DNA of 61,682 nt from an uncultured Eubacteriales bacterium (GCA_964572605.1 CAZNFG010000001.1:67459-129140), one strand, 5' to 3'; positions 5,444 through 47,193 are shown, counted from the first letter of the stretch. Program-made: numbers and translations. The notes: a model not told the origin generated them from the letters alone.

Positions 5444-6179
5444 TTACTCTATCTCCTCTTCTTCCTTGCTAATTTTCCAACCTTTAATATCTGATCTTTG
5501 TATGGCTCCAAAAACACAAGCTTTAATTCTTGGAATTGTAACCATTAAATCTCTTATTAGATTTTTTATAAATTCTCTTTTGGTTTTTCCGTCTGCTTCG
5601 CAAGTTTTTTTCATAACGGGAATATTATTTCTTTTAACAAATCCTTTTATCTCTTTTTCTGTTATATATATCATTGGTCTTATTGTTACAATATTTTTTC
5701 TTGATAAATATGTAGTTGGGGCAAATGTATGAACCTTTCCCTCATAAAAAAGACTTAAAAAAAATGTTTCTATTACGTCATCCATATGATGTCCTAAAGC
5801 AACTTTGTTACATCCATGGGCTTCTGCCACACCATTTAATGCCCCACGTCTTAGATTAGCACAAAGAGAACATGGATTTTTTTCTTTTCGTATATCGAAA
5901 ACAACTTCTTTTATATTTGTTTTTTCTATTACATATTCTATACCGCTTATCTTTACAAAGCTTTTCTAATTCAGTTGTGTCAAAAACATTTGATCCAGGA
6001 TCTATGGTTAACGCCATTAATTCAAAATGCTTAGGATAAAACAGTTGTAGGTTTTTAAGCGCCAAAAGTAGTGTAACGCTATCTTTTCCTCCAGAAAGTC
6101 CAACGGCTATTTTGTCTCCTTCTTCAATCATATTGTAATCTTCTATAGCCTTCCTAATGCTGCTTAAAATTTGTTTCAT
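5444..6179 (-). CDS. ttcA: TtcA-family PP-loop tRNA thiolase-like ATPase; the reading frame needs a +1 shift at in-frame CGG (complement 5943..5945)
   Basis: Split in the track into ORFs 5856..6236 and 5444..5830. SGGKDS PP-loop present. After AAG-CGG-T, reading GGT onward gives ...CKDKGIEYVIEKTNIKEVVFDIRKEKNPCSLCANLRRGALNGVAEAHGC..., which is continuous with the downstream ORF. Phase checked: 6179-5945=234 and 5944-5446=498, both divisible by 3. Confidence 0.75.
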
Positions 6180-6192
6180 TTTTTCCCTCCAA

Positions 6193-6622
6193 TTATTTGA
6201 ATAATAACTCTTCAATTCTAATAAAACTATTTGCATTGTAATCTACAACATATGGCGCAGAAATATCTTTGTATTTTCTTGTAATTGCAGATCCGCTTTT
6301 TTCTTTTATTTGATTAATTACTTCCTCTTCTCCACCCGGTATTAGATAGAAGCCTGTACCATATTCGTCTCCGCTTTCGCCAATAACAACTAAACTTCCG
6401 ATTTGAAAGCTCAAGACCTACTTTTTCTTCTGCTCCTGTTGAAACAAATGTTAAAAGAGCCCTGATTTCATCATCATCTGTAGATGTTTGAGCATCATCT
6501 TTTGCCTCTGTTGATTTATCTATCATTACTGTTGAACTATTCATAGCCATTGTTACTAATATAATAATTACAATGACAGTTATAATTAATGTGACCATTG
6601 AAACACCATTTTTGTTCCTCAT
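6193..6622 (-). CDS. Small pilin-like protein (prepilin-type leader without Glu+5); needs a +1 shift at in-frame CGG (complement 6398..6400)
   Basis: Split in the track into ORFs 6314..6640 and 6193..6414. N-terminus is MRNKNGVSMVTLIITVIVIIIL. AAT-CGG-A followed by GGA restores ...ELSNGSLVVIGESGDEYGTGFYLIPGG.... Phase checked: 6622-6400=222 and 6399-6195=204. Confidence 0.6.
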
Positions 6623-6748
6623 TTTTATCATCCTTTTCATATAAGTTTTTACCTATTTTTTGGTTCTAAACACCGTAATTATATCATAATATTTTAGATT
6701 TTGCTATTGCATTTTTATTTAGCCCGTGTTATACTTCATAAGGTGTAA

Positions 6749-15081: not shown

Positions 15082-15525
15082 AAATAATACCTCAACTTTC
15101 TTTCTATATGTATAATAAAATTTTTATTTATCTTTTTAATATACATTTGTGATTTATTTTTTTTGTTTTTTATTAATATAATAAAATTAAAAATAGTAGT
15201 AGTAATAGTAATGTCTGTTAGTAAAGTTAATAACTTATAAAAATCCTTCTCCCGTAAGAGAAACACTTTGTGAATAATTTGTAAAAATTCAACAAGAATA
15301 AATAACATTAACTAACAAGAAAAAGTTAATAATGAATTTTCAACAACTTTTCGACATAGTTTTAACATTTATATGTTAATATCTCTCTAGTCTCTTGCGG
15401 GTGAAAACGTTTAACGGTTTTGTAAAAAACTTGGTTTCTTGCAAACATCTGATAATGATACAAAAATTGTTATTAACAAACAAAATAAAATTGTGAATAA
15501 CTTATTTCCGTATAATTTTAAAACA
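15082..15525. promoter_or_regulatory. dnaA-dnaN intergenic oriC segment (DnaA boxes plus AT-rich unwinding-type tract)
   Basis: TGTGAATAA (complement TTATTCACA, fits TTATNCACA) at 15269..15277 and 15492..15500. An extremely AT-rich run lies at about 15100..15240. Confidence 0.65.
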
Positions 15526-16866
15526 TTAACTAATTATCATTTTTTTTATATTATCTACTATCATTCTTGTATTTGGATTTGTCTTAATTTGAGATTCAAC
15601 TTTATTAATTGCATATATTACAGTTGCGTGATCTCTACCACCAAACGACTTCCCTATTTCAACTAAAGGCAGACCTGTAAATTGTTTGGCTAAATACATT
15701 GCAATTTGTCTCGGAAATGCTATATCTCCAGATCTACGTTGAATTTTAAAATCATTTTGATCTAGATTGTAATATCTAGCAACAACTTCTTGTATATAAT
15801 CAACCGTAATAACTTTTTCTTTTGAATGTTTCAAATCATTCAATGCCCTTTCAGCAAGATTCATTGTTATAGGTGTGTTTGTAAGTGAAGCCATTGCAAC
15901 AATTTTATTTAAAGTTCCCTCAAGTTCACGAATATTTGATTCAACTTTATTAGCAACTACAGCTAATATTTCCTCATCTATTTGAATATTATCTAATTTA
16001 GTTTTCTTTCTTAATATTGCATATCTTGTTTCATAATCTGGTTTACTTATATCTGCAATAAGTCCCCATTCGAATCTTGATTTAAGTCTTTCTTCAAGTG
16101 GATTTAAATCTTTAGGAGGTCTATCACTAGATATTACAATTTGTCTATTGTTTTCGTGTAATTCATTAAATGTGTGGAAAAACTCTTCCTGACTTCTCTC
16201 TTTTCCACTAATAAATTGGATATCATCTACTAATAATAAATCTATACTTCTATATTTAGCTCTAAACTCTTCATTTTTATTAGATTGAATTGAAGCTACA
16301 AGTTCATTTGTAAATTTCTCTCCAGTTATATATAAAACTTTAGCATCTGTATTTTGAGATAATACATAATTACCAACAGCTTGCATTAGATGTGTTTTTC
16401 CTAGTCCAACTCCACCATATAAAAAAAGTGGATTATATGCTCTACCTGGATTTTCTGCTGTAGCAAGTGCCGCTGCATGTGCTAATTCATTACTCTTTCC
16501 AATAACGAAAGAATCAAAAGTATATCTTGGATTTAAAACACCAGAATTCTGTTTTTGATGATTTTGATTTTGCAACTTCTCTATTTTTGAATTTTCAGTT
16601 TCGCTGTTATTTCCTTCATCAAAAGTACAAACAACGTCTAAATTAAAAACAGTTCCTGTAACAATACGAAAAGCTTCAATAATAATCTCTCTTAACTCTC
16701 CTAGTATCCTACCTTTTTGATAAACAGTTTGAACTTTTAGACGCAAAGTATTACCTTCGATAGAAACAATACTAATGGGATTGATCCAAAGGTTATATCT
16801 CATTTCAGATACTTCGTCTTGTATAAGCTTCTTTGCCGTAGCTAAAATTTCTTCATAGTCTTGCAT
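15526..16866 (-). CDS. dnaA: Chromosomal replication initiator DnaA
   Basis: Walker A GGVGLGKTHL, LLVDDIQF, and C-terminal DNA-binding helix (FGGRDHATVIYA). AGGAGG RBS. Confidence 0.97.
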   Translation of the reverse strand: MQDYEEILATAKKLIQDEVSEMRYNLWINPISIVSIEGNTLRLKVQTVYQKGRILGELREIIIEAFRIVTGTVFNLDVVCTFDEGNNSETENSKIEKLQNQNHQKQNSGVLNPRYTFDSFVIGKSNELAHAAALATAENPGRAYNPLFLYGGVGLGKTHLMQAVGNYVLSQNTDAKVLYITGEKFTNELVASIQSNKNEEFRAKYRSIDLLLVDDIQFISGKERSQEEFFHTFNELHENNRQIVISSDRPPKDLNPLEERLKSRFEWGLIADISKPDYETRYAILRKKTKLDNIQIDEEILAVVANKVESNIRELEGTLNKIVAMASLTNTPITMNLAERALNDLKHSKEKVITVDYIQEVVARYYNLDQNDFKIQRRSGDIAFPRQIAMYLAKQFTGLPLVEIGKSFGGRDHATVIYAINKVESQIKTNPNTRMIVDNIKKMIIS

Positions 16867-17431
16867 GATTTCCTCCTAACAAGATTGACAAAGTTATTAA
16901 CATTTTACTCACAAATGTTAATAAAATTGTGAATAAAAACTAAACAACTTGCAAAAATGGCTATTTCCCCAACAAAATTGAATGTTCAAATTGTGAATAA
17001 TTAAAAAGCTTGATTTAAAGGCTTTTAACAACAAAATCCTATTTTCTACACCTTTTTTATACGAACATATATTTGTTGGCTTATAAAAACATTATGTTTA
17101 TTACACATAATAAATTACAACAAATTAAGTGCCGTAAACTCAGATGTATCAATATTTGTAGAAGTTATCAACATTATATCTTTTAATCCCGCTTTTTGCA
17201 AGCAAATAACCTAAAAAATTGAAATATCAGCTTCCGTAAACTTTGTAGGACATATTGTAAACTTTACATAAGTTTCATAATATGTTTTTATAAATTTTGG
17301 CTTTGTTTTCAACATATCTTTTTTAGTAAATTTTTTTTATAATTAAAAAAGTTCAAGCAACTATTAATATTTATTGAATAATTAAGTAGATCTGGTATAT
17401 ATTTTATATGGAGTCAATTTCTAAATTTTAG
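16867..17431. promoter_or_regulatory. dnaA-upstream oriC segment / dnaA promoter region with DnaA boxes
   Basis: AAATTGTGAATAA at 16928..16936 and 16992..17000 (core coordinates). Related boxes are TGTTAATAA near 16916 and TTATCAACA at 17165..17173. About 670 bp are noncoding. Confidence 0.65.
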
Positions 17432-17461
17432 TTGACAAAAGTCTTATATATAGTGTAGAAT
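17432..17461 (+). promoter_or_regulatory. Sigma-A type promoter for the rpmH-rnpA operon
   Basis: TTGACA (17432..17437), an 18-nt spacer ending in TG, then TAGAAT (17456..17461). Confidence 0.55.
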
Positions 17462-17536
17462 ATGCATGCTGTTGTTTTTAGACTATTATTTTTAATAATA
17501 TGAAATAGATATAAATTATCGGGAGGTGCAAGATAT

Positions 17537-17671
17537 ATGAAAAGAACATTTCAACCTAAAAATAAACAAGAAAAAAGAGAGCATGGCTTTAGAGCTAGAA
17601 TGGCTACAGCGGGTGGAAGAAAAGTATTAAAAAGAAGAATGCAAAAAGGTAGAAGCAAGCTTTCTGCATAA
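17537..17671 (+). CDS. rpmH: 50S ribosomal protein L34
   Basis: Not in the track (44 aa). It reads [44 protein letters not shown], with GGGAGG RBS. Confidence 0.95.
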
Positions 17672-17752
17672 TTTAAGTAGTAAAAACAGTGTGATAAGGG
17701 CCCAATAGGGCCTTTTTACATATGTATAAACTTTTATAAATAAGGAGAGTAT

Positions 17753-18097
17753 ATGTTATCACTTAAAAAAAGCAGTGAATTTCAAAGACTATTTAAGTCT
17801 GGAAAATGGTACGGAGACGGAGTTTTAAGTATTTATATTGAAAAAAATAGTAAAGATTCAAACAGAGTTGGCGTGGCTGTGGGAAGAAAAATTGCTAAAA
17901 GTGTTAAACGTAATAGAATAAAGAGACTTATTAAAGAATCTTATAGAATACATGAAAAAGAAATTAATCAGGGGTATAATATAATAGTTGTTTGTAAAAA
18001 AGACATAGATGTTGAAAAGATTAATTTTAATGAAATTGAAAAAAATCTTGTAAGTTGCTTGGAGAAGGCATCTTTAATGAGTTGTGAAATTAACTAA
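17753..18097 (+). CDS. rnpA: Ribonuclease P protein component
   Basis: 114 aa, basic, directly after rpmH. The KRNRIKRLIKE (RNR-type) motif is present. Confidence 0.9.
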   Translation: MLSLKKSSEFQRLFKSGKWYGDGVLSIYIEKNSKDSNRVGVAVGRKIAKSVKRNRIKRLIKESYRIHEKEINQGYNIIVVCKKDIDVEKINFNEIEKNLVSCLEKASLMSCEIN

Positions 18098-18119
18098 CAA
18101 AGACAATAGGAGGATATAT

Positions 18120-32464: not shown

Positions 32465-35400
32465 ATGAAAAATCAAAGAGGCGTGTCGATGATAATGCTG
32501 GTTATTATGATAATCGTAATAATTGTTTTATCAACGATAATATTTTCATCAAAAGATAGCATAAATGAAGCTGGAGAAGCAAAGTTTTTACAAGAGCTAT
32601 CAGAAGTCAGAAAAGGAATTACCACAATACAAGGTATAAATTCAAAACAAGGTAGAGATGAAAAAACCGTCAATAAAGGTTTTATAAAAGTTAATATAAA
32701 TAATGCTCCAGAAAGTTTCGTAAGCTACACAGATGATGGAATTACTGGTTATGTTGTTGACCTTTCAGTTATTGATTATCAAAAGTCGAGTAAAGGTCAA
32801 GGTTATCTAGACATTATACAAGGAGATACTATTTCATTCGACGAAGACGATGTATATATATATGACGCAATTGGAAATGTATATTATGCAAAAGGATTTG
32901 TATTAGAATCAGGAAAATCATATTATGCGGAAGAAGAAGTTGAAAAGAAAAACCCACCTATGGTTAATATTGTTGATACTACAGGTGGAAATATAGTGGT
33001 AAAGGTAACGCCAGCATATAATGGAAACGTTATAGTTACTATTGGTGGAAAAAAAGCAAACACAAGCGATGGAGAAACATTCACATTAAATGTAACTGAA
33101 AATGGAACATATATTTTAATTGCAGAAGAAGAAAACGGAAGCTCAACAAGAACCACTGTATCAGTAAGTGATATTACAAAAGAAATATCGCCATTGTCTG
33201 TAATAACAAACGTAAGAATAAATAATGGGGAAGGATATACAAATGATTTAAGTGGACAAGCAACAATGTACATAACTGCAGAAAATACAGAATACATAAG
33301 CGTTATGGTAAATACTTTAGCAGTACCAGATGTAAACGATTCGGCAAAATGGAGAAAATATTCAAACACAATGACAATAACATTAAATGATGGGTTAAAT
33401 AGATATTATATCTGGGGTAAAAATGATGAAAATAGATGCTCCAATAGTGCAGGAGTGGCAGAAATAACATTAGATAAAACAGTTCCAACAAGGGAAGAGC
33501 CTACATATGTAATTAATGGATTTGAAATGACTGTAACATGTAAACAAACAGATGCTTTACCTTTGGATGTTATGTTTGGATATAAAACATTAAGTCAAAA
33601 CGAATTTGTTTGGCAAGAAAGTAATGTAATAACAGATATTGTGCCAGGAGAAAAATATATTTTAACAACTAAAGCAACAGACAGAGCAGGAAATACTTCC
33701 ATATCAAGAGAAAAATTAACAGTAGCTATACAAGAATTGCCTGGTGGAGTAACAATTGTACCAAGCTCTACAGAGTGGAGCAAGTCGGTTGATGTATTAA
33801 TTACATATCCAGACAATATGTATCAAAATATTTATAGAATCAATGACGGAGATTGGAGAGTTGTAACAGCATCACAAACAAGAGTTAAGCTTATTGCAAA
33901 CTCAGTTGTCGAGGCTGGAGTTTCAATAAGTAAAAATGCAAACGAACGTGAAATTGGAGAAATAACAAGACTAGATGTAAATTGGATTGATAGAGTAAAG
34001 CCTGCAATCTATGAAATAAATACAGGAAGTGGAGATCCAACACAAGAAGGATATTATGTTACAGCCAAAATTAGAGATGATGAATCTGGAATAGTTGCAT
34101 GGACAGTGACGGGTGTAAATGAAGAACCAACAACATGGACAAATGAAATTACAAAAACAAAAGAAGAACAAACAATAAGTATATTTGTAAATGATAATAA
34201 ACCATATTTCATTTGGGCAAAAGATCAGACAAATCAAGCAACAATGGCTAATTTTATTATACAAAACATAGATAAAACAGATCCAGTAATAAAAACATAT
34301 AATCTTTCATACGAACAATCAATGGCAACAATAGATGTTGTTGCACAAGATATTGCGCTTGGACTTAATGGATATGCAGTAACAAGAGGCGAAAACGTTT
34401 CACCAACAGAGTCTGACTGGGTAGAAATTACAAAAACAATACAAGAATATAATATAAGTTATGAAGTAAGAGATGGTGACACGTATAATGTATGGGTAAG
34501 AGACGTATCGGGAAGGAAAAAAAGCGTCTCGCAAAATATACGAGTTAGATACAATGTGACATATGATTATGCTACAAATGGAGGAACAAGTATAGATATA
34601 CCTAACAATGTTGTGGAATTTGGATGTAATACAAATATAGACTTAACGCCAATATCATCAAGAAGTGGATATATATTTGTTGGATGGAACACAGACCCTA
34701 ATGCAACGGATGCATTAAGAGAATTTGTAATAGGAACTGAAGATGTAACGGTTTATGCAATATTTAAAAGAGCAATTTCGGTTACAATTCAATATTATGA
34801 TGTAGATAGATTGGTAACAGATAATATAGAACGATTCTTATACAATGGTGAAGAAGAGGGAGTAATAACAGTACCAAATGTTACAGCAGAATATACGGGA
34901 TATATAAAAGAAGGTTGGACAGAAGATATTTCAAATAATGCTACAGTAAAATATAGTGGAGAAAATATAGAAATAACAACATCAGGAGATGTCAATCTAT
35001 ACATGATGTATAGAAAAAATATTTCTGCAACATATAGGTATTATTCATATGTTATAGAAGATACAGAAGCAGCAGCAAGAGAACATATGGATTATCTTCC
35101 ATTTCAAGAAGATGGTATAACCAAATATAGATGTTACGATCAAAAAAATGAAATCTTATATGGAAGAATAAGAACGAATTCATATAATATAGCAAGCACG
35201 ACGACAGCTTCAATCACATCGCCATCAATTCAAACAACGATACCAAAATCTAGCGTGTGGGTGTTGAGAGGATGGAGCCAAAGCTCTGAATCAGATGGTG
35301 CAATATCACATGCAAATAATGAAGTAGTAAATATTAATATAAATAAAACATACTATGCATCATATGCATCAGAGATAAACGCATATAAATACAAATATGG

Positions 35401-38215
35401 AGTATCTACACCATATGAGACTTTAACCGTGAATGCAACGATGTCATACAATGCACAAATAAAATCAGCAAGAGTGTTACTTGGTGCAGCCGCAACAGAA
35501 AATATATCTGGGCAAGTGTGGACAGCAGAGGGTTGGTGTAAAAATTCTGGTACAGATATTAGAGTAGATATAGTAAATGAGGCATACGATGAAATACTTG
35601 TAGATACTTCGTATTATGCAATCTATGTAAGAGATATATCAGTAACAGAAATAGCATATGGACTAGTTACAAATGTACATTCAGGAAGGGTATATCTAAA
35701 CGTTGGTGGAATCAATAAAAAAGCAGAAATAACAATGTCAAATTTAAATAATGTAGATTTTAATGGACAAACCTGGCAGCCAAGAGGTTTTTCAACAAGT
35801 GAATTGCCTAATGCAACTACTACGCTACAACAAGGAGAAATGTTTTTAACAGATGTAAGTGCCACATATTATGTGTCATATTATACGAATTTAACAATAA
35901 CAACAAAAATATTGAACGGAACATCTAACAAAGGAGCAATAGCATATTTAGGTTATGACAGTGCAATTCATGGGGCAACAGTTACTCTTGGAACAATAAC
36001 TCAAGAGCATTATGATGAAGACATATGGACAGGAATAGGGTGGACAAAAGATAATACACAAACCATAGGTGATCTGATTGAAATAAATAGCACAGAAACG
36101 GTAAGCACAAGTACGACATATTATGCAATGTACGAACGAAACGTAAGCGTAACAAAAAATACATACAATAATCAAACCGAGGTAATAACAGCAATAGCAA
36201 GATTAAACGCAAGTGGAGTGGTTGGAGATGCAATAATACCAGTTGGTACAGCAGAAGATGTTATGTTGTCATCAACATTGTGGACACAATATAAATGGAG
36301 CACAACACCAGGAACAAATGATCAATCAGCAACATTAATAAATCAAAATTCGAATATGCAAACACATAAAGATTCAAACATATATGCAATATATATGTCA
36401 GGAATAAGAGCAAGAGTACACTATTATGAAAATGGTATTAAGTATACAGATATAGATATAGGCTCGAGAATGAATTATATCGGCAACATAGTAGCTCAAG
36501 AAACAAAATACATGCCTGCAATTGCTTCGGTCACAAAAGATGGAAAGACATGGAATGGGGTTGGTTATTTATCTAGCACAAATGGATATACATTAGCAGA
36601 TAAAGAAGGACAAGTCACATATGTTGGTGGTGAAGAAATTAGTATAACAACTCAAACAGAATATTATGCAATATATGCAACTACTATTACTCTAACAAAA
36701 GTGGAAATGTTTCAAACAAACCAGACTAACTATGCAATAAAGATGAACTCGCTTGGCGAAGAATTAGGATACACATTTAAACTAGGAACAATAAGCGATG
36801 TATCACTTGAGGGAAAAGTATGGGTTGGAATAGGCTGGAATACAAATGGAAATATTCCAACAAGTCTTCCAGAAGTTTCACAAAATCAAGACATAACGAT
36901 ATTAAACAGTATAGAATACTACGCATTATATAATAGAGAAATAATAGTAGAATTAAACGAATATAAAGATGGAATCACAACAAATAAGAAGACACAATCA
37001 AGTAGTATATATATGAGTCAAGATGGAACAATGACGAGCACGACAATAGTAATATCAAGTCCAACAAATCAAACACTAACAGCACAAGGCACGACATGGA
37101 ATTTCAAAGGTTGGTCAGCATTACAAAATTCATCAACAATTACAGCGATGGCTGGAGCGACACTAAACCTACAAGACGATACAATTTTATATGCAGTATA
37201 TTCAAAAATAGCAGAAGCAATATTATATAAATATGATAATACGGTACAAAACACATTAAGTGGAGACGCATATATGGATGTAATGGGAAGAGTGAAAAAA
37301 GCAAACATCTTATTAGATGGAATAGAGAGCATAGAGATTGAAGGAAAAGCATGGAATCCAAGATGCTGGAGTACAGGAATAGCAGGAAATGCAGGGCTGG
37401 GCAGAGTAGAACCGGGGGCAACAGCAAGTATATACATAGACACAACTTACTATGCATCATATACTAAGGATATAACAGTAGGATTTTACTTATTGCAAAC
37501 AACCGAAGACAATATAATAGTACAAGACAAAACAGCAACGGCATATGTAAATTATCAAGGAGAAATAATTAACGCAACAATCAGTGCACCAACGCAAGCA
37601 AATGTTGGCAGATGGATAGCGGATGGTTACACGGAATCGACAGAGAATCCTAGCATTGCAATAAATGGTATATTGTATGGAGGAACAATGGATGTAATTG
37701 AAGGAAAAACATTATATGGACTTTATCATGATGACGTTATAATAACGTATAATGCAAATGGAGGAACACCAACACCTGCAACAACTTCGGGAATAGCAAG
37801 ATATAAAGCGGGAACAGAAGGAATAAAAGAAGATGCATTAATTACAATTACAACTACTAATATAGTTAAAACAGGTGGAATATTTAATGGAGCGTGGGGA
37901 GAATCACCAACATCAACAGAAGCATATGCAATAAATGGTGAAGAAAAAATTGTCGAAATAGATAAGACACTATATGCAATTTTTGAACCAAGAACATATA
38001 ATGTCGATTATGCAAATAATATTTTATCAAGACAAATAAAAACACATGGTATACCGTTAACAATACATGAAGAAGAACCTGAAATGGAAGGATTTACATT
38101 TAAAGGATGGACTCTATCAGAGAGTTCAACAACTGTTATATATTCACCAGGATCAACCTATATAGCAAACGAACCAATAACACTTTATCCGGTATGGGAG
38201 GCATGGCCAGACTGA
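32465..38215 (+). CDS. Giant (1916 aa) cell-surface protein: pilin-like N-terminal anchor, Ig-like modules, about 14 divergent Listeria-Bacteroides (InlB B-repeat/Flg_new-like) repeats
   Basis: N-terminus MKNQRGVSMIMLVIMIIVIIVL. From about aa 693 there are modules of roughly 85-100 aa, each with a (G/R)W(S/T/N) element and ending in an aromatic motif (TVYAIFKR, TYYASYAS, SYYAIYVR, TYYAMYER, EYYAIYAT, TLYAIFEP, TLYPVWEA ...). The last modules are canonical (ITYNANGGTP..., GFTFKGWTL...LYPVWE). No LPXTG or choline/SLH-type anchor is visible. Confidence 0.75.
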   Translation: MKNQRGVSMIMLVIMIIVIIVLSTIIFSSKDSINEAGEAKFLQELSEVRKGITTIQGINSKQGRDEKTVNKGFIKVNINNAPESFVSYTDDGITGYVVDLSVIDYQKSSKGQGYLDIIQGDTISFDEDDVYIYDAIGNVYYAKGFVLESGKSYYAEEEVEKKNPPMVNIVDTTGGNIVVKVTPAYNGNVIVTIGGKKANTSDGETFTLNVTENGTYILIAEEENGSSTRTTVSVSDITKEISPLSVITNVRINNGEGYTNDLSGQATMYITAENTEYISVMVNTLAVPDVNDSAKWRKYSNTMTITLNDGLNRYYIWGKNDENRCSNSAGVAEITLDKTVPTREEPTYVINGFEMTVTCKQTDALPLDVMFGYKTLSQNEFVWQESNVITDIVPGEKYILTTKATDRAGNTSISREKLTVAIQELPGGVTIVPSSTEWSKSVDVLITYPDNMYQNIYRINDGDWRVVTASQTRVKLIANSVVEAGVSISKNANEREIGEITRLDVNWIDRVKPAIYEINTGSGDPTQEGYYVTAKIRDDESGIVAWTVTGVNEEPTTWTNEITKTKEEQTISIFVNDNKPYFIWAKDQTNQATMANFIIQNIDKTDPVIKTYNLSYEQSMATIDVVAQDIALGLNGYAVTRGENVSPTESDWVEITKTIQEYNISYEVRDGDTYNVWVRDVSGRKKSVSQNIRVRYNVTYDYATNGGTSIDIPNNVVEFGCNTNIDLTPISSRSGYIFVGWNTDPNATDALREFVIGTEDVTVYAIFKRAISVTIQYYDVDRLVTDNIERFLYNGEEEGVITVPNVTAEYTGYIKEGWTEDISNNATVKYSGENIEITTSGDVNLYMMYRKNISATYRYYSYVIEDTEAAAREHMDYLPFQEDGITKYRCYDQKNEILYGRIRTNSYNIASTTTASITSPSIQTTIPKSSVWVLRGWSQSSESDGAISHANNEVVNININKTYYASYASEINAYKYKYGVSTPYETLTVNATMSYNAQIKSARVLLGAAATENISGQVWTAEGWCKNSGTDIRVDIVNEAYDEILVDTSYYAIYVRDISVTEIAYGLVTNVHSGRVYLNVGGINKKAEITMSNLNNVDFNGQTWQPRGFSTSELPNATTTLQQGEMFLTDVSATYYVSYYTNLTITTKILNGTSNKGAIAYLGYDSAIHGATVTLGTITQEHYDEDIWTGIGWTKDNTQTIGDLIEINSTETVSTSTTYYAMYERNVSVTKNTYNNQTEVITAIARLNASGVVGDAIIPVGTAEDVMLSSTLWTQYKWSTTPGTNDQSATLINQNSNMQTHKDSNIYAIYMSGIRARVHYYENGIKYTDIDIGSRMNYIGNIVAQETKYMPAIASVTKDGKTWNGVGYLSSTNGYTLADKEGQVTYVGGEEISITTQTEYYAIYATTITLTKVEMFQTNQTNYAIKMNSLGEELGYTFKLGTISDVSLEGKVWVGIGWNTNGNIPTSLPEVSQNQDITILNSIEYYALYNREIIVELNEYKDGITTNKKTQSSSIYMSQDGTMTSTTIVISSPTNQTLTAQGTTWNFKGWSALQNSSTITAMAGATLNLQDDTILYAVYSKIAEAILYKYDNTVQNTLSGDAYMDVMGRVKKANILLDGIESIEIEGKAWNPRCWSTGIAGNAGLGRVEPGATASIYIDTTYYASYTKDITVGFYLLQTTEDNIIVQDKTATAYVNYQGEIINATISAPTQANVGRWIADGYTESTENPSIAINGILYGGTMDVIEGKTLYGLYHDDVIITYNANGGTPTPATTSGIARYKAGTEGIKEDALITITTTNIVKTGGIFNGAWGESPTSTEAYAINGEEKIVEIDKTLYAIFEPRTYNVDYANNILSRQIKTHGIPLTIHEEEPEMEGFTFKGWTLSESSTTVIYSPGSTYIANEPITLYPVWEAWPD

Positions 38216-38366: not shown

Positions 38367-39119
38367 ATGCCAAGAAAATCAAGATCAGAAACGCTTTCAG
38401 AATATTGTCACATAATAATACAAGGTGATGAAAAGAAAAACATTTTTAATACAAATAGAAAGAAAGAGAAAATTCAATATTTAATGTTAAAAAATGCATT
38501 TCGAAACGATGTAAAAATATTAGCTTATTGTCTAATGGATAATCATGCACATATACTGCTACATAGTACTGAAATTAAACGTATTGAAAAAATGATGGCA
38601 CAGACTAATACAGCGTATGGGGTTTATTATAACAAAATTAGAAACAATGTGGGTCATGTTTTTAGAAATCGATATAAAATAGAAGAAATTTCATCACAGA
38701 ATCATTTAATTAATTGTATAAAATATATTCATAACAATCCCGTAAAAGCAAAAATCGTAAGAGAATGTGTGGAATATCAGTTCTCCAGTTATATGAACTA
38801 TATAAAGAAAGATGGAATTTTTGATAAAACCTTAGTTAAGCTTTGCAAAATAAATGAGGAAGATTATCGTAATATTGTGAATCCGATTATTATTGAATAC
38901 TGTTACATGGAAGAATCATTTAATAAAGAAGATGTGGAAAAAGTAATAAACGAAATAAATCTAGAGTATGATTTGAATGACTTAAGCAACGATGAAGTTA
39001 TTGAGGTATATGATAAAATTAAAAAACGATGCAAACTTCCAAACATTCATATTGCCAAAATACTTAATATTGAACGCAGAAAACTGAAAAAAATAATTGA
39101 CAAACAGGAGCGTCCCTAA
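38367..39119 (+). CDS. IS200/IS605-superfamily Y1 (HUH) transposase of the RAYT type
   Basis: HUH motif in CLMDNHAHILL, and catalytic-Tyr region IKYIHNNPVKAKI. 250 aa, AGGAGG RBS. The last codons overlap a REP unit. Confidence 0.8.
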   Translation: MPRKSRSETLSEYCHIIIQGDEKKNIFNTNRKKEKIQYLMLKNAFRNDVKILAYCLMDNHAHILLHSTEIKRIEKMMAQTNTAYGVYYNKIRNNVGHVFRNRYKIEEISSQNHLINCIKYIHNNPVKAKIVRECVEYQFSSYMNYIKKDGIFDKTLVKLCKINEEDYRNIVNPIIIEYCYMEESFNKEDVEKVINEINLEYDLNDLSNDEVIEVYDKIKKRCKLPNIHIAKILNIERRKLKKIIDKQERP

Positions 39120-46091: not shown

Positions 46092-47193
46092 TTGTTCAAA
46101 AAAATAATCAAATCAATAGATTATATTATAATTGCTATCTTAATTGTACTTTTTATAATAGGTATAATTGCGCTATATAGTGCAAATGGAGGATCACAAG
46201 GAAATCAATCTGAAGCAGAAAAACAAGTAGTATGGTTTTTTATTGGTTTTACAGTAATGATGGCAATAGTTTTTATAGATTATGAATGGATCGCAAAATT
46301 ATGGATTCCTATATATATCGTGTCAGTTATAAGTTTAATTGCAGTGCTCTTTACTGCACCAGTAAATGGAGCAACAAGCTGGTTTAATGTTTTTGGTGTT
46401 GGTATTCAGCCAAGTGAGTTTGCAAAAATTGCAATCATATTGGGATTAGCACAGATAATAGTTTTATATAAGAAAAAAATAAATAAACCTTTGACGTTAT
46501 TGTGTATAATACTATTTGCAATGATTCCAATATTTTTAGTAGTTAAGCAACCAGACTATGGTACAGCAATGGTTTTAGTTGCAATCTTAGCATTTATGTT
46601 ATTTTTAGGTGGAATAGATTATAAATATATTATTGTTGCAGCAATTCTTGCAGCAATATCGTTACCAATGCTATATAATTTTATATTGCCAGAACATGCA
46701 AAATCAAGAATTGAAGTGTTTTTAAATCCACAAACTGATCCACAAGGAGCGGGATATAATATTATACAAGCAAAACTTGCGGTTGGTTCTGGACAATTAT
46801 GGGGAATGGGATTATTTGAAGGAAACCAAACACAGCTTCGGATATTTACCAATGAAAGTTACAGATTTTATATATGCAGTAATAGGTGAAGAGATGGGAT
46901 TTGTGGTATCAGCCATTGTAGTGATACTTTTTGTTTTATTAATAATAAGATCATATTATATTGCAAAGACAGCAAAAGATGAGTTGGGATCATTAATAGC
47001 AGCAGGAATTGCAACTATGTTTTTGGCACACTTTTTGGAAAATGTAGGAATGAATATAGGTCTAATGCCAATAACGGGAATACCTCTTCCTTTTATAAGT
47101 TACGGTGGAAGTTCTCTACTTACAAACTTTATTGGAATTGGATTATTACTTAGTGTAAATGTTAGACGAACAAAGAAAATGTTTGAATGGTAG
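46092..47193 (+). CDS. rodA: SEDS-family peptidoglycan polymerase RodA/FtsW; needs a +1 shift at in-frame CGG 46839..46841
   Basis: ORFs 46092..46889 and 46777..47193. CTT-CGG-A read as L-G gives ...[31 protein letters not shown]..., the conserved SEDS motif. Phase checked: 46839-46092=747 and 46840-46777=63. Confidence 0.85.

Follow-up and report, generated by a model that had tools for sequence, protein, structure and literature searches.

A prepilin-like leader without Glu5 on three otherwise unrelated proteins of an uncultured Eubacteriales bacterium

Three genes and their common N-terminus

Three genes in the window analysed here, a stretch of 61,682 nt from an uncultured Eubacteriales bacterium (GCA_964572605.1 CAZNFG010000001.1:67459-129140; positions are counted in the window), encode proteins that begin with nearly the same leader. 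It resembles that of type IV prepilins but lacks the glutamate at position +5 (Glu5). The genes and their parts are as follows.

6193..6622, minus strand: small pilin-like gene, about 144 aa, with a frame break near 6400-6412 and open reading frames (ORFs) 6314..6640 and 6193..6414
6539..6622, minus strand: its leader MRNKNG plus the 22-residue hydrophobic α1N segment VSMVTLIITVIVIIILVTMAMN; Thr at +5 and +9
56794..57681, minus strand: 295-aa two-module pilin-like protein with a family of 263 unnamed homologs
57598..57681, minus strand: its leader MKKNNG plus α1N ISLITLIITVIVIIILASITIY; Thr at +5 and +9
57256..57597, minus strand: remainder of its N-terminal pilin-like module (residues 29-142), α1C and a small β-sheet in the AlphaFold2 (AF2) model
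56794..57255, minus strand: its C-terminal W/Y-rich β domain (residues 143-295), with the motifs WYDYS, WANVML, GSMFVWIPRY and GIWVSKYD in invariant columns
32465..38215, plus strand: 1916-aa giant modular pilin-like, adhesin-like protein (Pfam Flg_new, 7e-16), with one N-terminal hydrophobic segment and no C-terminal anchor
32465..32548, plus strand: its leader MKNQRG plus α1N VSMIMLVIMIIVIIVLSTIIFS; Met at +5
34550..38212, plus strand: about 13 Flg_new-like (Listeria-Bacteroides) repeats with a period of about 85-88 aa, matched by Pfam and TIGR02543

The leaders read MRNKNG-VSMVTLIITVIVIIIL (start at 6622, minus strand), MKKNNG-ISLITLIITVIVIIIL (57681, minus strand) and MKNQRG-VSMIMLVIMIIVIIVL (32465, plus strand). 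Each consists of a K/N-rich leader, a glycine, [V/I]-S and a hydrophobic stretch of about 22 residues. All N-termini quoted in the initial annotation were found, and a six-frame regular-expression scan of the window returned these three as its only N-terminal leaders. Compared pairwise over 27 residues they share 16, 14 and 13 identities. For 18 other transmembrane (TM)-like 27-mers taken from window ORFs (153 pairs) the mean is 3.4 and the maximum 9. Thus, the similarity of the leaders is far above chance or composition bias. The concern that a generic TM helix had been picked up is further countered by the presence of the same motif on operon-encoded pilins of at least 68 species (see below). 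Beyond the leader, pairwise BLASTP comparison of the three proteins gave nothing significant, in keeping with the earlier description of their mature parts as unrelated.

In all three proteins the leader is short, hydrophilic and basic, has Gly (-1) as its last residue and is followed, right after the predicted cleavage site, by about 21 mostly hydrophobic residues including the Ser/Thr at +2 that is typical of class III signal peptides (Ser in all three). None of them has Glu at +5. As previously noted, position +1 is occupied by Val or Ile instead of Phe, and position +5 by Thr, Thr and Met, respectively. The N-terminal hydrophobic segment is the only one in each protein, and neither an LPXTG nor another C-terminal sorting motif was found in the three, unlike in sortase-anchored surface proteins. 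Likewise, the Flp motif (G/xxxxEY) with its Glu5-Tyr6 pair is not present in the three leaders, and the proteins (144-1916 aa) do not conform to the very small mature size of Tad/Flp pilins (40-60 aa).

The small gene is not the single intact gene that it had been taken for. Its reading frame shifts near 6400-6412, and the joined 144-aa product aligns end to end, across the junction, with the intact 148-aa homolog P0397 (38% identity, E 6e-22), which is encoded at the orthologous position in another species, upstream of ttcA and an NAGPA gene. Independent assemblies of this organism contain the break as well (P0125; L091/L092, with gene calls of 102 and 80 aa), so that the frameshift is real and not an error of the window. 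Probably, 6193..6622 is a pseudogene.

Members of the 295-aa family share an overall identity of 44-59%. Within the leader, the conservation in 71 of them is far tighter: G6 (Gly -1) is invariant, and S8 (+2), L12 (+6) and T15 (+9) are each kept in at least 90%. Such conservation is not expected of a plain membrane anchor. Position +5 is always Ser, Thr or Ala, with Glu in none of 120 members. The AF2 model of the full-length protein (mean predicted local distance difference test score, pLDDT, 80.6) contains a helix at residues 9-63, a small β-sheet and a separate C-terminal β domain at 150-290. When residues 1-142 were modelled alone (pLDDT 89), a 55-residue helix (9-63) and strands across 81-136 were obtained. 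The predicted helix and sheet together correspond to the lollipop topology of pilins. The C-terminal domain belongs to no Pfam or NCBIfam family and gave no match in the PDB by sequence or by fold. Searching the PDB with a sequence profile returned nothing significant, with geopilin and PilE1 at E 0.15-0.27.

In the 1916-aa protein each repeat closes with a ..YYAIY-type motif, the motif positions running from 763 to 1906. The N-terminal module of this protein recurs in P0429, in P0471 and in a 3784-aa protein encoded to the right of the window. Giant homologs of more than 2600 aa are encoded 2-3 kb from the 295-family gene in the relatives L029, L032 and L049. In L029 the giant gene, transketolase genes and the 295-family gene are adjacent, and a rearrangement may have separated the giant and the 295-family gene in the present organism. 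Directly downstream of the 1916-aa gene lies a gene for an IS200-like Y1 transposase (38367..39119, plus strand; Pfam Y1_Tnp, 2.5e-11).

The leader class and the pilus operons of related species

A 46-column profile of the leader, as had been suggested for a check, was searched against a collection of 5.8 billion proteins and against 1.84 billion cluster representatives. In the former, 2,640 proteins matched among 8,000 candidates scored; in the latter, 20,223 clusters did so at E<=1e-3. Of the 150 clusters listed, nearly all have the match at their N-terminus; lengths range from 44 to 1940 aa. Some matching proteins are annotated as Pfam N_methyl or, by JGI, as 'pseudopilin PulG' or 'PilE'. 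Among the top 125 matches, 124 have Ile or Val at +1 and all have Ser or Thr at +2, while position +5 holds Ser (53), Ala (38), Thr (31), Val (2) or Met (1) and never Glu. Thr at +9 (118 of 125; codon 57637..57639 in the 295-aa gene) is near-invariant in this leader class, unlike in canonical pilins, and might assume the role of a polar contact within the filament core. Homologs of the window proteins originate from metagenome-assembled genomes (MAGs) of uncultured Clostridia.

The link to type IV filaments comes from a 69-aa leader match, P0203 (MKQQKG-ITLVALVITIVV...), which is encoded inside a complete type IV pilus operon. The gene order is PilM/N fusion, PilO-like protein, 140-aa protein, pilin, PilD, two minor pilins, PilB, PilT and PilC. 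PilD of this operon carries an A24_N_bact domain (1.8e-31), PilB the domains MshEN and T2SSE, and P0203 itself reaches 20.8 bits on Pfam N_methyl, the cut-off being 21.2. The same operon is present in the NCBI MAG GCA_022791475.1. When GTDB species genomes were scanned with a chimeric query composed of the 295-aa family and PilD, the best 80 of 469 relatives comprised 12 assemblies with the 295-aa family and 68 with PilD, Clostridium sp. CAG:273 being one of the latter. Except where loci are ended by contig edges, the full operon order is kept in all 68. Thus, the leader profile retrieves pilins encoded beside PilD, PilB, PilT and PilC in at least 68 related species, which bears out the suggestion that the leader is of the prepilin (class III-like) type and connected with type IV filament machinery. 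In the literature, we found no description of this leader without Glu5 or of the PilMN-to-PilC operon in these bacteria.

Pilin genes occur in one to ten tandem copies per operon. L057 and L070 represent the upper end, with nine to ten tandem small Ala5 pilin genes upstream of PilD in a single pilus operon. From position, size and copy number we infer that this small multi-copy gene upstream of pilD encodes the major pilin. Its +5 residue is Ala in 87 and Thr in two of 89 proteins of the major type, and Glu in none. The first minor pilin class has Asp in all 33 proteins detected, and the second mostly Ser, Ala or Thr, with Glu in three, the only ones among the operon pilins. At 211-385 bp downstream of pilC, there are genes for same-leader proteins of 540 and 604 aa, and further leader proteins of 223-532 aa are encoded within 5 kb of the operon. 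By contig matching, seven additional small pilins retrieved with the leader profile were linked to PilD homologs, and none of the 295-family contigs.

A hidden Markov model (HMM) built from 95 operon pilins matches all three window proteins: the 295-aa protein with 59.8 bits (residues 1-30 alone, 40.4 bits), the small protein with 18.8 bits over residues 1-56, and residues 1-220 of the giant with 19.0 bits. This establishes profile-level homology of the leaders to those of operon pilins. Because the score is concentrated in residues 1-30, the homology pertains to leader and α1 only and not to the globular parts.

Additional leader genes of the same organism, which is represented in ENA ERZ926039 and in Logan DRR784983, DRR784985, SRR34068995, SRR29384758 and SRR30464862, lie on public contigs that extend about 10 kb past each window edge.

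L091 16080..17103, about 7 kb left of the window start: tandem genes for pilin-like proteins of 165 and 170 aa, beside an M23 peptidase gene
L095 11673..20840, about 0.9 kb right of the window end: gene for a 3784-aa Flg_new/LRR_5 giant, after HSP33 and three tRNA genes

The 165-aa protein (MKSNRG-VTMVE...) has the canonical Glu5 and passes TIGR02532 (18.5 bits; cut-off 16.3), and the 170-aa protein (MKKQSG-VTALS...) has Ser5. The mature parts of both are weakly similar to residues 35-147 of the 295-aa family (E 1e-3 to 1e-4). A scan of JGI metagenomes with this pair returned a single contig of 1 kb. Clear homology links the N-terminal modules of the 3784-aa and 1916-aa proteins. In the gene for the former, the leader (..EKR[G]VSMISLVATIII) and the upstream ATG are in different frames, at 'aaacggagtttctatg', which could reflect a pseudogene, a phase-variable switch or an assembly error. 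Thus, the organism has at least six leader genes within about 90 kb, and the textbook prepilin among them, located just outside the window, strengthens the proposed link to type IV filaments.

Modular pilins and competing explanations

To judge from its sequence, the leader is a prepilin-type N-terminus and not a generic TM helix. We consider it fairly probable that the N-termini of the three proteins represent prepilin-type (class III) signal peptides of lineage-specific type IV pilins without Glu5, and that the 295-aa and 1916-aa proteins are modular pilins built into a filament. Pilins of this kind are widespread in uncultured low-GC gut Clostridia, and the loss of Glu5 is a lineage-wide trait of the whole pilus system, presumed major pilin included, rather than a peculiarity of the three proteins. 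The latter, two of which are large and adhesin-like, probably are pilus-displayed subunits. The initial annotation had viewed them as cargo of a divergent type IV filament. The operons of related species support the filament, but 'cargo' is better replaced by pilin subunits with grafted modules.

According to the model we propose, the short basic leader would keep the N-terminus in the cytoplasm while the hydrophobic segment of about 22 residues inserts into the membrane. A PilD-type prepilin peptidase would then cut after the invariant glycine, and the mature protein, held by its long α1 helix, would be taken up by the PilB ATPase, the PilC platform and PilM/N/O into a filament. The small protein, present here as a frameshifted copy, would represent the plain pilin module, to which a W/Y-rich domain would be grafted in the 295-aa protein, and Ig-like (immunoglobulin-like) and Flg_new repeat adhesin domains in the 1916-aa protein. 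For modular pilins of this type, the most plausible place would be the pilus tip or its vicinity, a position that tolerates a subunit without Glu5. In this scheme we infer cleavage, filament assembly and placement at the tip, as well as the existence of the machinery in this genome.

With bacterial type IV pilins (PF07963, TIGR02532) the proteins share the basic, Gly-ending leader, Ser/Thr at +2 and about 21 hydrophobic residues that start a helix of some 55 residues, followed by a β-sheet in the AF2 models. Moreover, the corresponding genes of relatives adjoin those for PilD, PilB, PilT and PilC. They differ by Ile/Val instead of Phe at +1, by Thr, Met, Ala or Ser instead of Glu at +5, by Thr at +9 and by the lack of Gly14 and Pro22, and the window proteins score below both curated models. 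Glu5 has been called 'absolutely conserved in bacterial' type IV pili (PMC10710030). It forms a salt bridge to the N-terminus of the next subunit, and Glu5 mutants cannot homopolymerise (PMC4471445, PMC10710030); it is dispensable for cleavage but required for homopolymer assembly (PMC4471445). Tip caps without Glu5 are known, namely the K subunit GspK/PilK and PilA of Streptococcus sanguinis, and their degenerate class III signal peptides go unnoticed by prediction software (PMC9934059, PMC10191384). In those systems, however, it is one capping subunit that has no Glu5 while the major pilin keeps it. By contrast, the presumed major pilin of the related operons described here has Ala5, and one minor class has an acidic residue, Asp5. 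The absence of Glu5 from the presumed major pilin, as read from the operon sequences, is what distinguishes this group from the Glu5-less pilins known so far.

Grafted architectures have precedents. PilB and PilC of S. sanguinis consist of a short N-terminal pilin module with adhesive domains behind it (PMC8179133, PMC9934059), which is the arrangement that we propose, with the pilin fold taken from prediction, for the 295-aa and 1916-aa proteins. Unlike these, at least PilC of S. sanguinis has a canonical Glu5 signal peptide, and both genes are located in the pil locus. The window proteins are orphans in this respect, are far larger (1916 aa, and 3784 aa for the neighbour) and carry Flg_new, Ig-like or LRR repeats. 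Archaeal type IV pilins and archaellins often lack Glu5, Phe1 and Pro22 (PMC4471445, PMC10710030). Here, however, the host is a bacterium, the peptidase has the bacterial A24_N_bact domain, and the operon is of the type IVa pilus (T4aP)-like kind with PilM, PilN, PilO and PilT.

Several observations weigh against the interpretation as functional pilins. At E<=1, none of the three proteins matches Pfam N_methyl (PF07963) or TIGR02532. Apart from its first 30 residues, the 295-aa protein owes its HMM score partly to α1C, and with these residues removed nothing significant is left. As regards the pilin fold, which the initial annotation had proposed to examine by structure prediction, the AF2 helix and β-sheet are in its favour; Foldseek comparison of both models with the PDB is not, as it gave no significant match (best E 0.67 and 2.8; the C. 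difficile minor pilin PilW at E 9.5). The PilD clade of the operons lacking Glu5 (P0241 and 119 homologs; L005 10326..11120) matches A24_N_bact strongly, but neither Peptidase_A24 (PF01478) nor any NCBIfam prepilin peptidase model. Its Asp127 (GIDKE) is conserved in 98%, the second candidate catalytic residue, Asp177, in only 71%. In a PDB profile search this clade gave no solved relative and only chance matches to zinc fingers. In the window, tblastn with clade-specific PilB, PilC, PilD, PilM, PilO and PilT and with Tad-like proteins found no machinery, which confirms the earlier statement that prepilin peptidase, ATPase and platform genes are absent from it. The left 10-kb flank contains no homolog of PilB, PilC, PilD, PilM or PilT by tblastn, and gene and Pfam listing of the right 10-kb flank revealed no machinery either. 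The search for PilD and assembly genes thus had a divided outcome, as they were not found in the window or in either 10-kb flank and are present together with the same leader class in at least 68 related species. Furthermore, among the best 80 of 469 relatives no assembly contains both the 295-aa family (12 assemblies) and a PilD locus (68 assemblies). The lineage with the 295-aa family may have a more divergent PilD. Finally, two of the six leader genes of the organism are frameshifted, as are several housekeeping genes, and the leader system could be decaying.

Part of these findings would also be expected if the N-termini were vestigial pilin N-termini that serve as uncleaved signal anchors after loss of the pilus machine, so that the proteins are type II membrane proteins showing their C-terminal domains at the surface. 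We regard this as unlikely, but as the strongest of the alternatives. It would account for the missing machinery in 61.7 kb plus 20 kb of flanks, for the two separate sets of assemblies and for the frameshifts in two leader genes, which are accompanied by wider decay in PBP2, rodA, ttcA and dus; a single N-terminal TM segment is typical of signal anchors as well. However, the 82 kb examined are a small fraction of the genome, and the separation of the two sets of assemblies rests on the best 80 of 469 matches. A plain anchor, moreover, needs none of Gly -1, Ser/Thr +2 and Thr +9, which are nearly always kept in a family with no more than 44-59% identity, and the tandem pair for the 165-aa and 170-aa proteins, including a canonical Glu5 prepilin, is intact in the same organism.

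Even less probable, in our view, is that the proteins are substrates of a Tad-like (CpaF/TadBC) filament system instead of a T4aP-like PilB/PilC operon. The possibility arises from the relatives, where the following cluster was found.

L001 13541..20116, beyond gyrA; also in L012, L014-L016, L019-L021, L025 and L026: Tad-like cluster with a DUF87/VirB4-like ATPase among its members

In 10 of 12 species the 295-family gene is located 3-5 kb from this cluster, which comprises a CpaF-like T2SSE ATPase and CpaE-like, TadB/C-like, DUF87 and TraC-like proteins. In addition, the order TANB77 has a conserved Tad-like cluster with seven 'pilin-like' proteins (Kim et al. 2024, PMC11680825). That cluster encodes CpaB, TadZ, CpaE, CpaF and TadBC, and its pilin-like proteins, numbered 932-938 in HRGM_Genome_2725, have 143-621 aa and one N-terminal TM helix or signal peptide (PMC11680825). 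Its carriers are the same kind of uncultured low-GC gut Clostridia; yet its gene order is not PilMN-to-PilC, and the paper makes no mention of a prepilin leader, PilD or position 5. The leader profile, by contrast, matches pilins of PilMN-to-PilC operons beside an A24_N_bact PilD, and the leaders have no Flp motif. In the relatives, gyrA separates the cluster from the 295-family gene, which lies on the other strand. The cluster beside gyrA was ranked low as candidate machinery, as it is absent from the window and contains no leader-bearing ORF. In the same 10 relatives the 295-family gene is divergent from comM-yraN-dprA, and neither feature is found in the window.

It is very improbable that the leaders are ordinary Sec signal peptides processed by signal peptidase I, or that their likeness is due to chance among AT-biased, Ile-rich TM helices: a genome of about 30% GC does favour Ile-rich TM helices and Lys/Asn-rich n-regions, but the leader identities exceed those of all other TM-like segments of the window, the hydrophobic stretch of at least 22 residues is not followed by an AxA-type c-region, and the same motif is found on operon pilins of at least 68 species.

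Returning to the reading as pilins without Glu5, it is tempting to go one step further. We tentatively suggest, as a possibility for which the odds are somewhat short of even, that uncultured low-GC gut Clostridia including CAG-273-type genomes harbour a lineage of bacterial type IV pili with an Ala/Ser/Thr5 major pilin, a near-invariant Thr9 and a PilD whose peptidase domain is unrecognisable, in which the leader serves to mount modular proteins of up to about 3800 aa on pili. If true, such a lineage would contradict the notion of Glu5 as an absolutely conserved residue that bacterial pilus assembly requires, and a presumed major pilin with Ala5 in at least 68 species would make the role of Glu5 directly testable. 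Prediction tools and curated models depend on Glu5, which is regarded as the single functional residue common to all bacterial type IV pilins, and the more than 20,000 clusters matched by the leader profile, with no Glu5 throughout the top matches, would likewise allow its role to be tested and, in addition, expose a large annotation blind spot. The carriers are abundant uncultured gut Clostridia, and pilin-like proteins are the reported link between a related order, TANB77, and the response to immunotherapy (PMC11680825). Since giant repeat adhesins are numerous among the proteins that carry it, the leader may be the hallmark of a major attachment route to host or particles.

Further features of the window and its flanks

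The order of genes in the left flank is porA, serpin gene, porB, pcrA, the two tandem pilin-like genes and the M23 peptidase gene. The serpin gene (402 aa; L091 11448..12656) is inserted between porA and porB of a 2-oxoacid:ferredoxin oxidoreductase operon. A type IV pilus operon beyond porB, as present in L005, was considered for this organism and rejected, as the left flank is devoid of machinery.

The window represents the replication-origin region, with dnaA, dnaN, recF, gyrB, rnpA, yidC, mnmE/G, parA/B, minCDE and mreBCD. The sign of the GC skew flips near 16-18 kb. The probable chromosomal origin is located at about 15500..18100, where both GC and AT skews flip between dnaA (15526..16866, minus strand) and rnpA (17753..18097, plus strand).

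Four housekeeping genes of the window are split by frameshifts (53967..56071; 46092..47193; 5444..6236; 47187..~48100), PBP2 into three ORFs in three frames, and rodA, ttcA and dus into two each. Because the same splits are present in the independent short-read assemblies L003, L091 and L095, they are real in the organism. This suggests either decay of the elongasome or programmed or tolerated frameshifting; mreB, mreC and mreD look intact.

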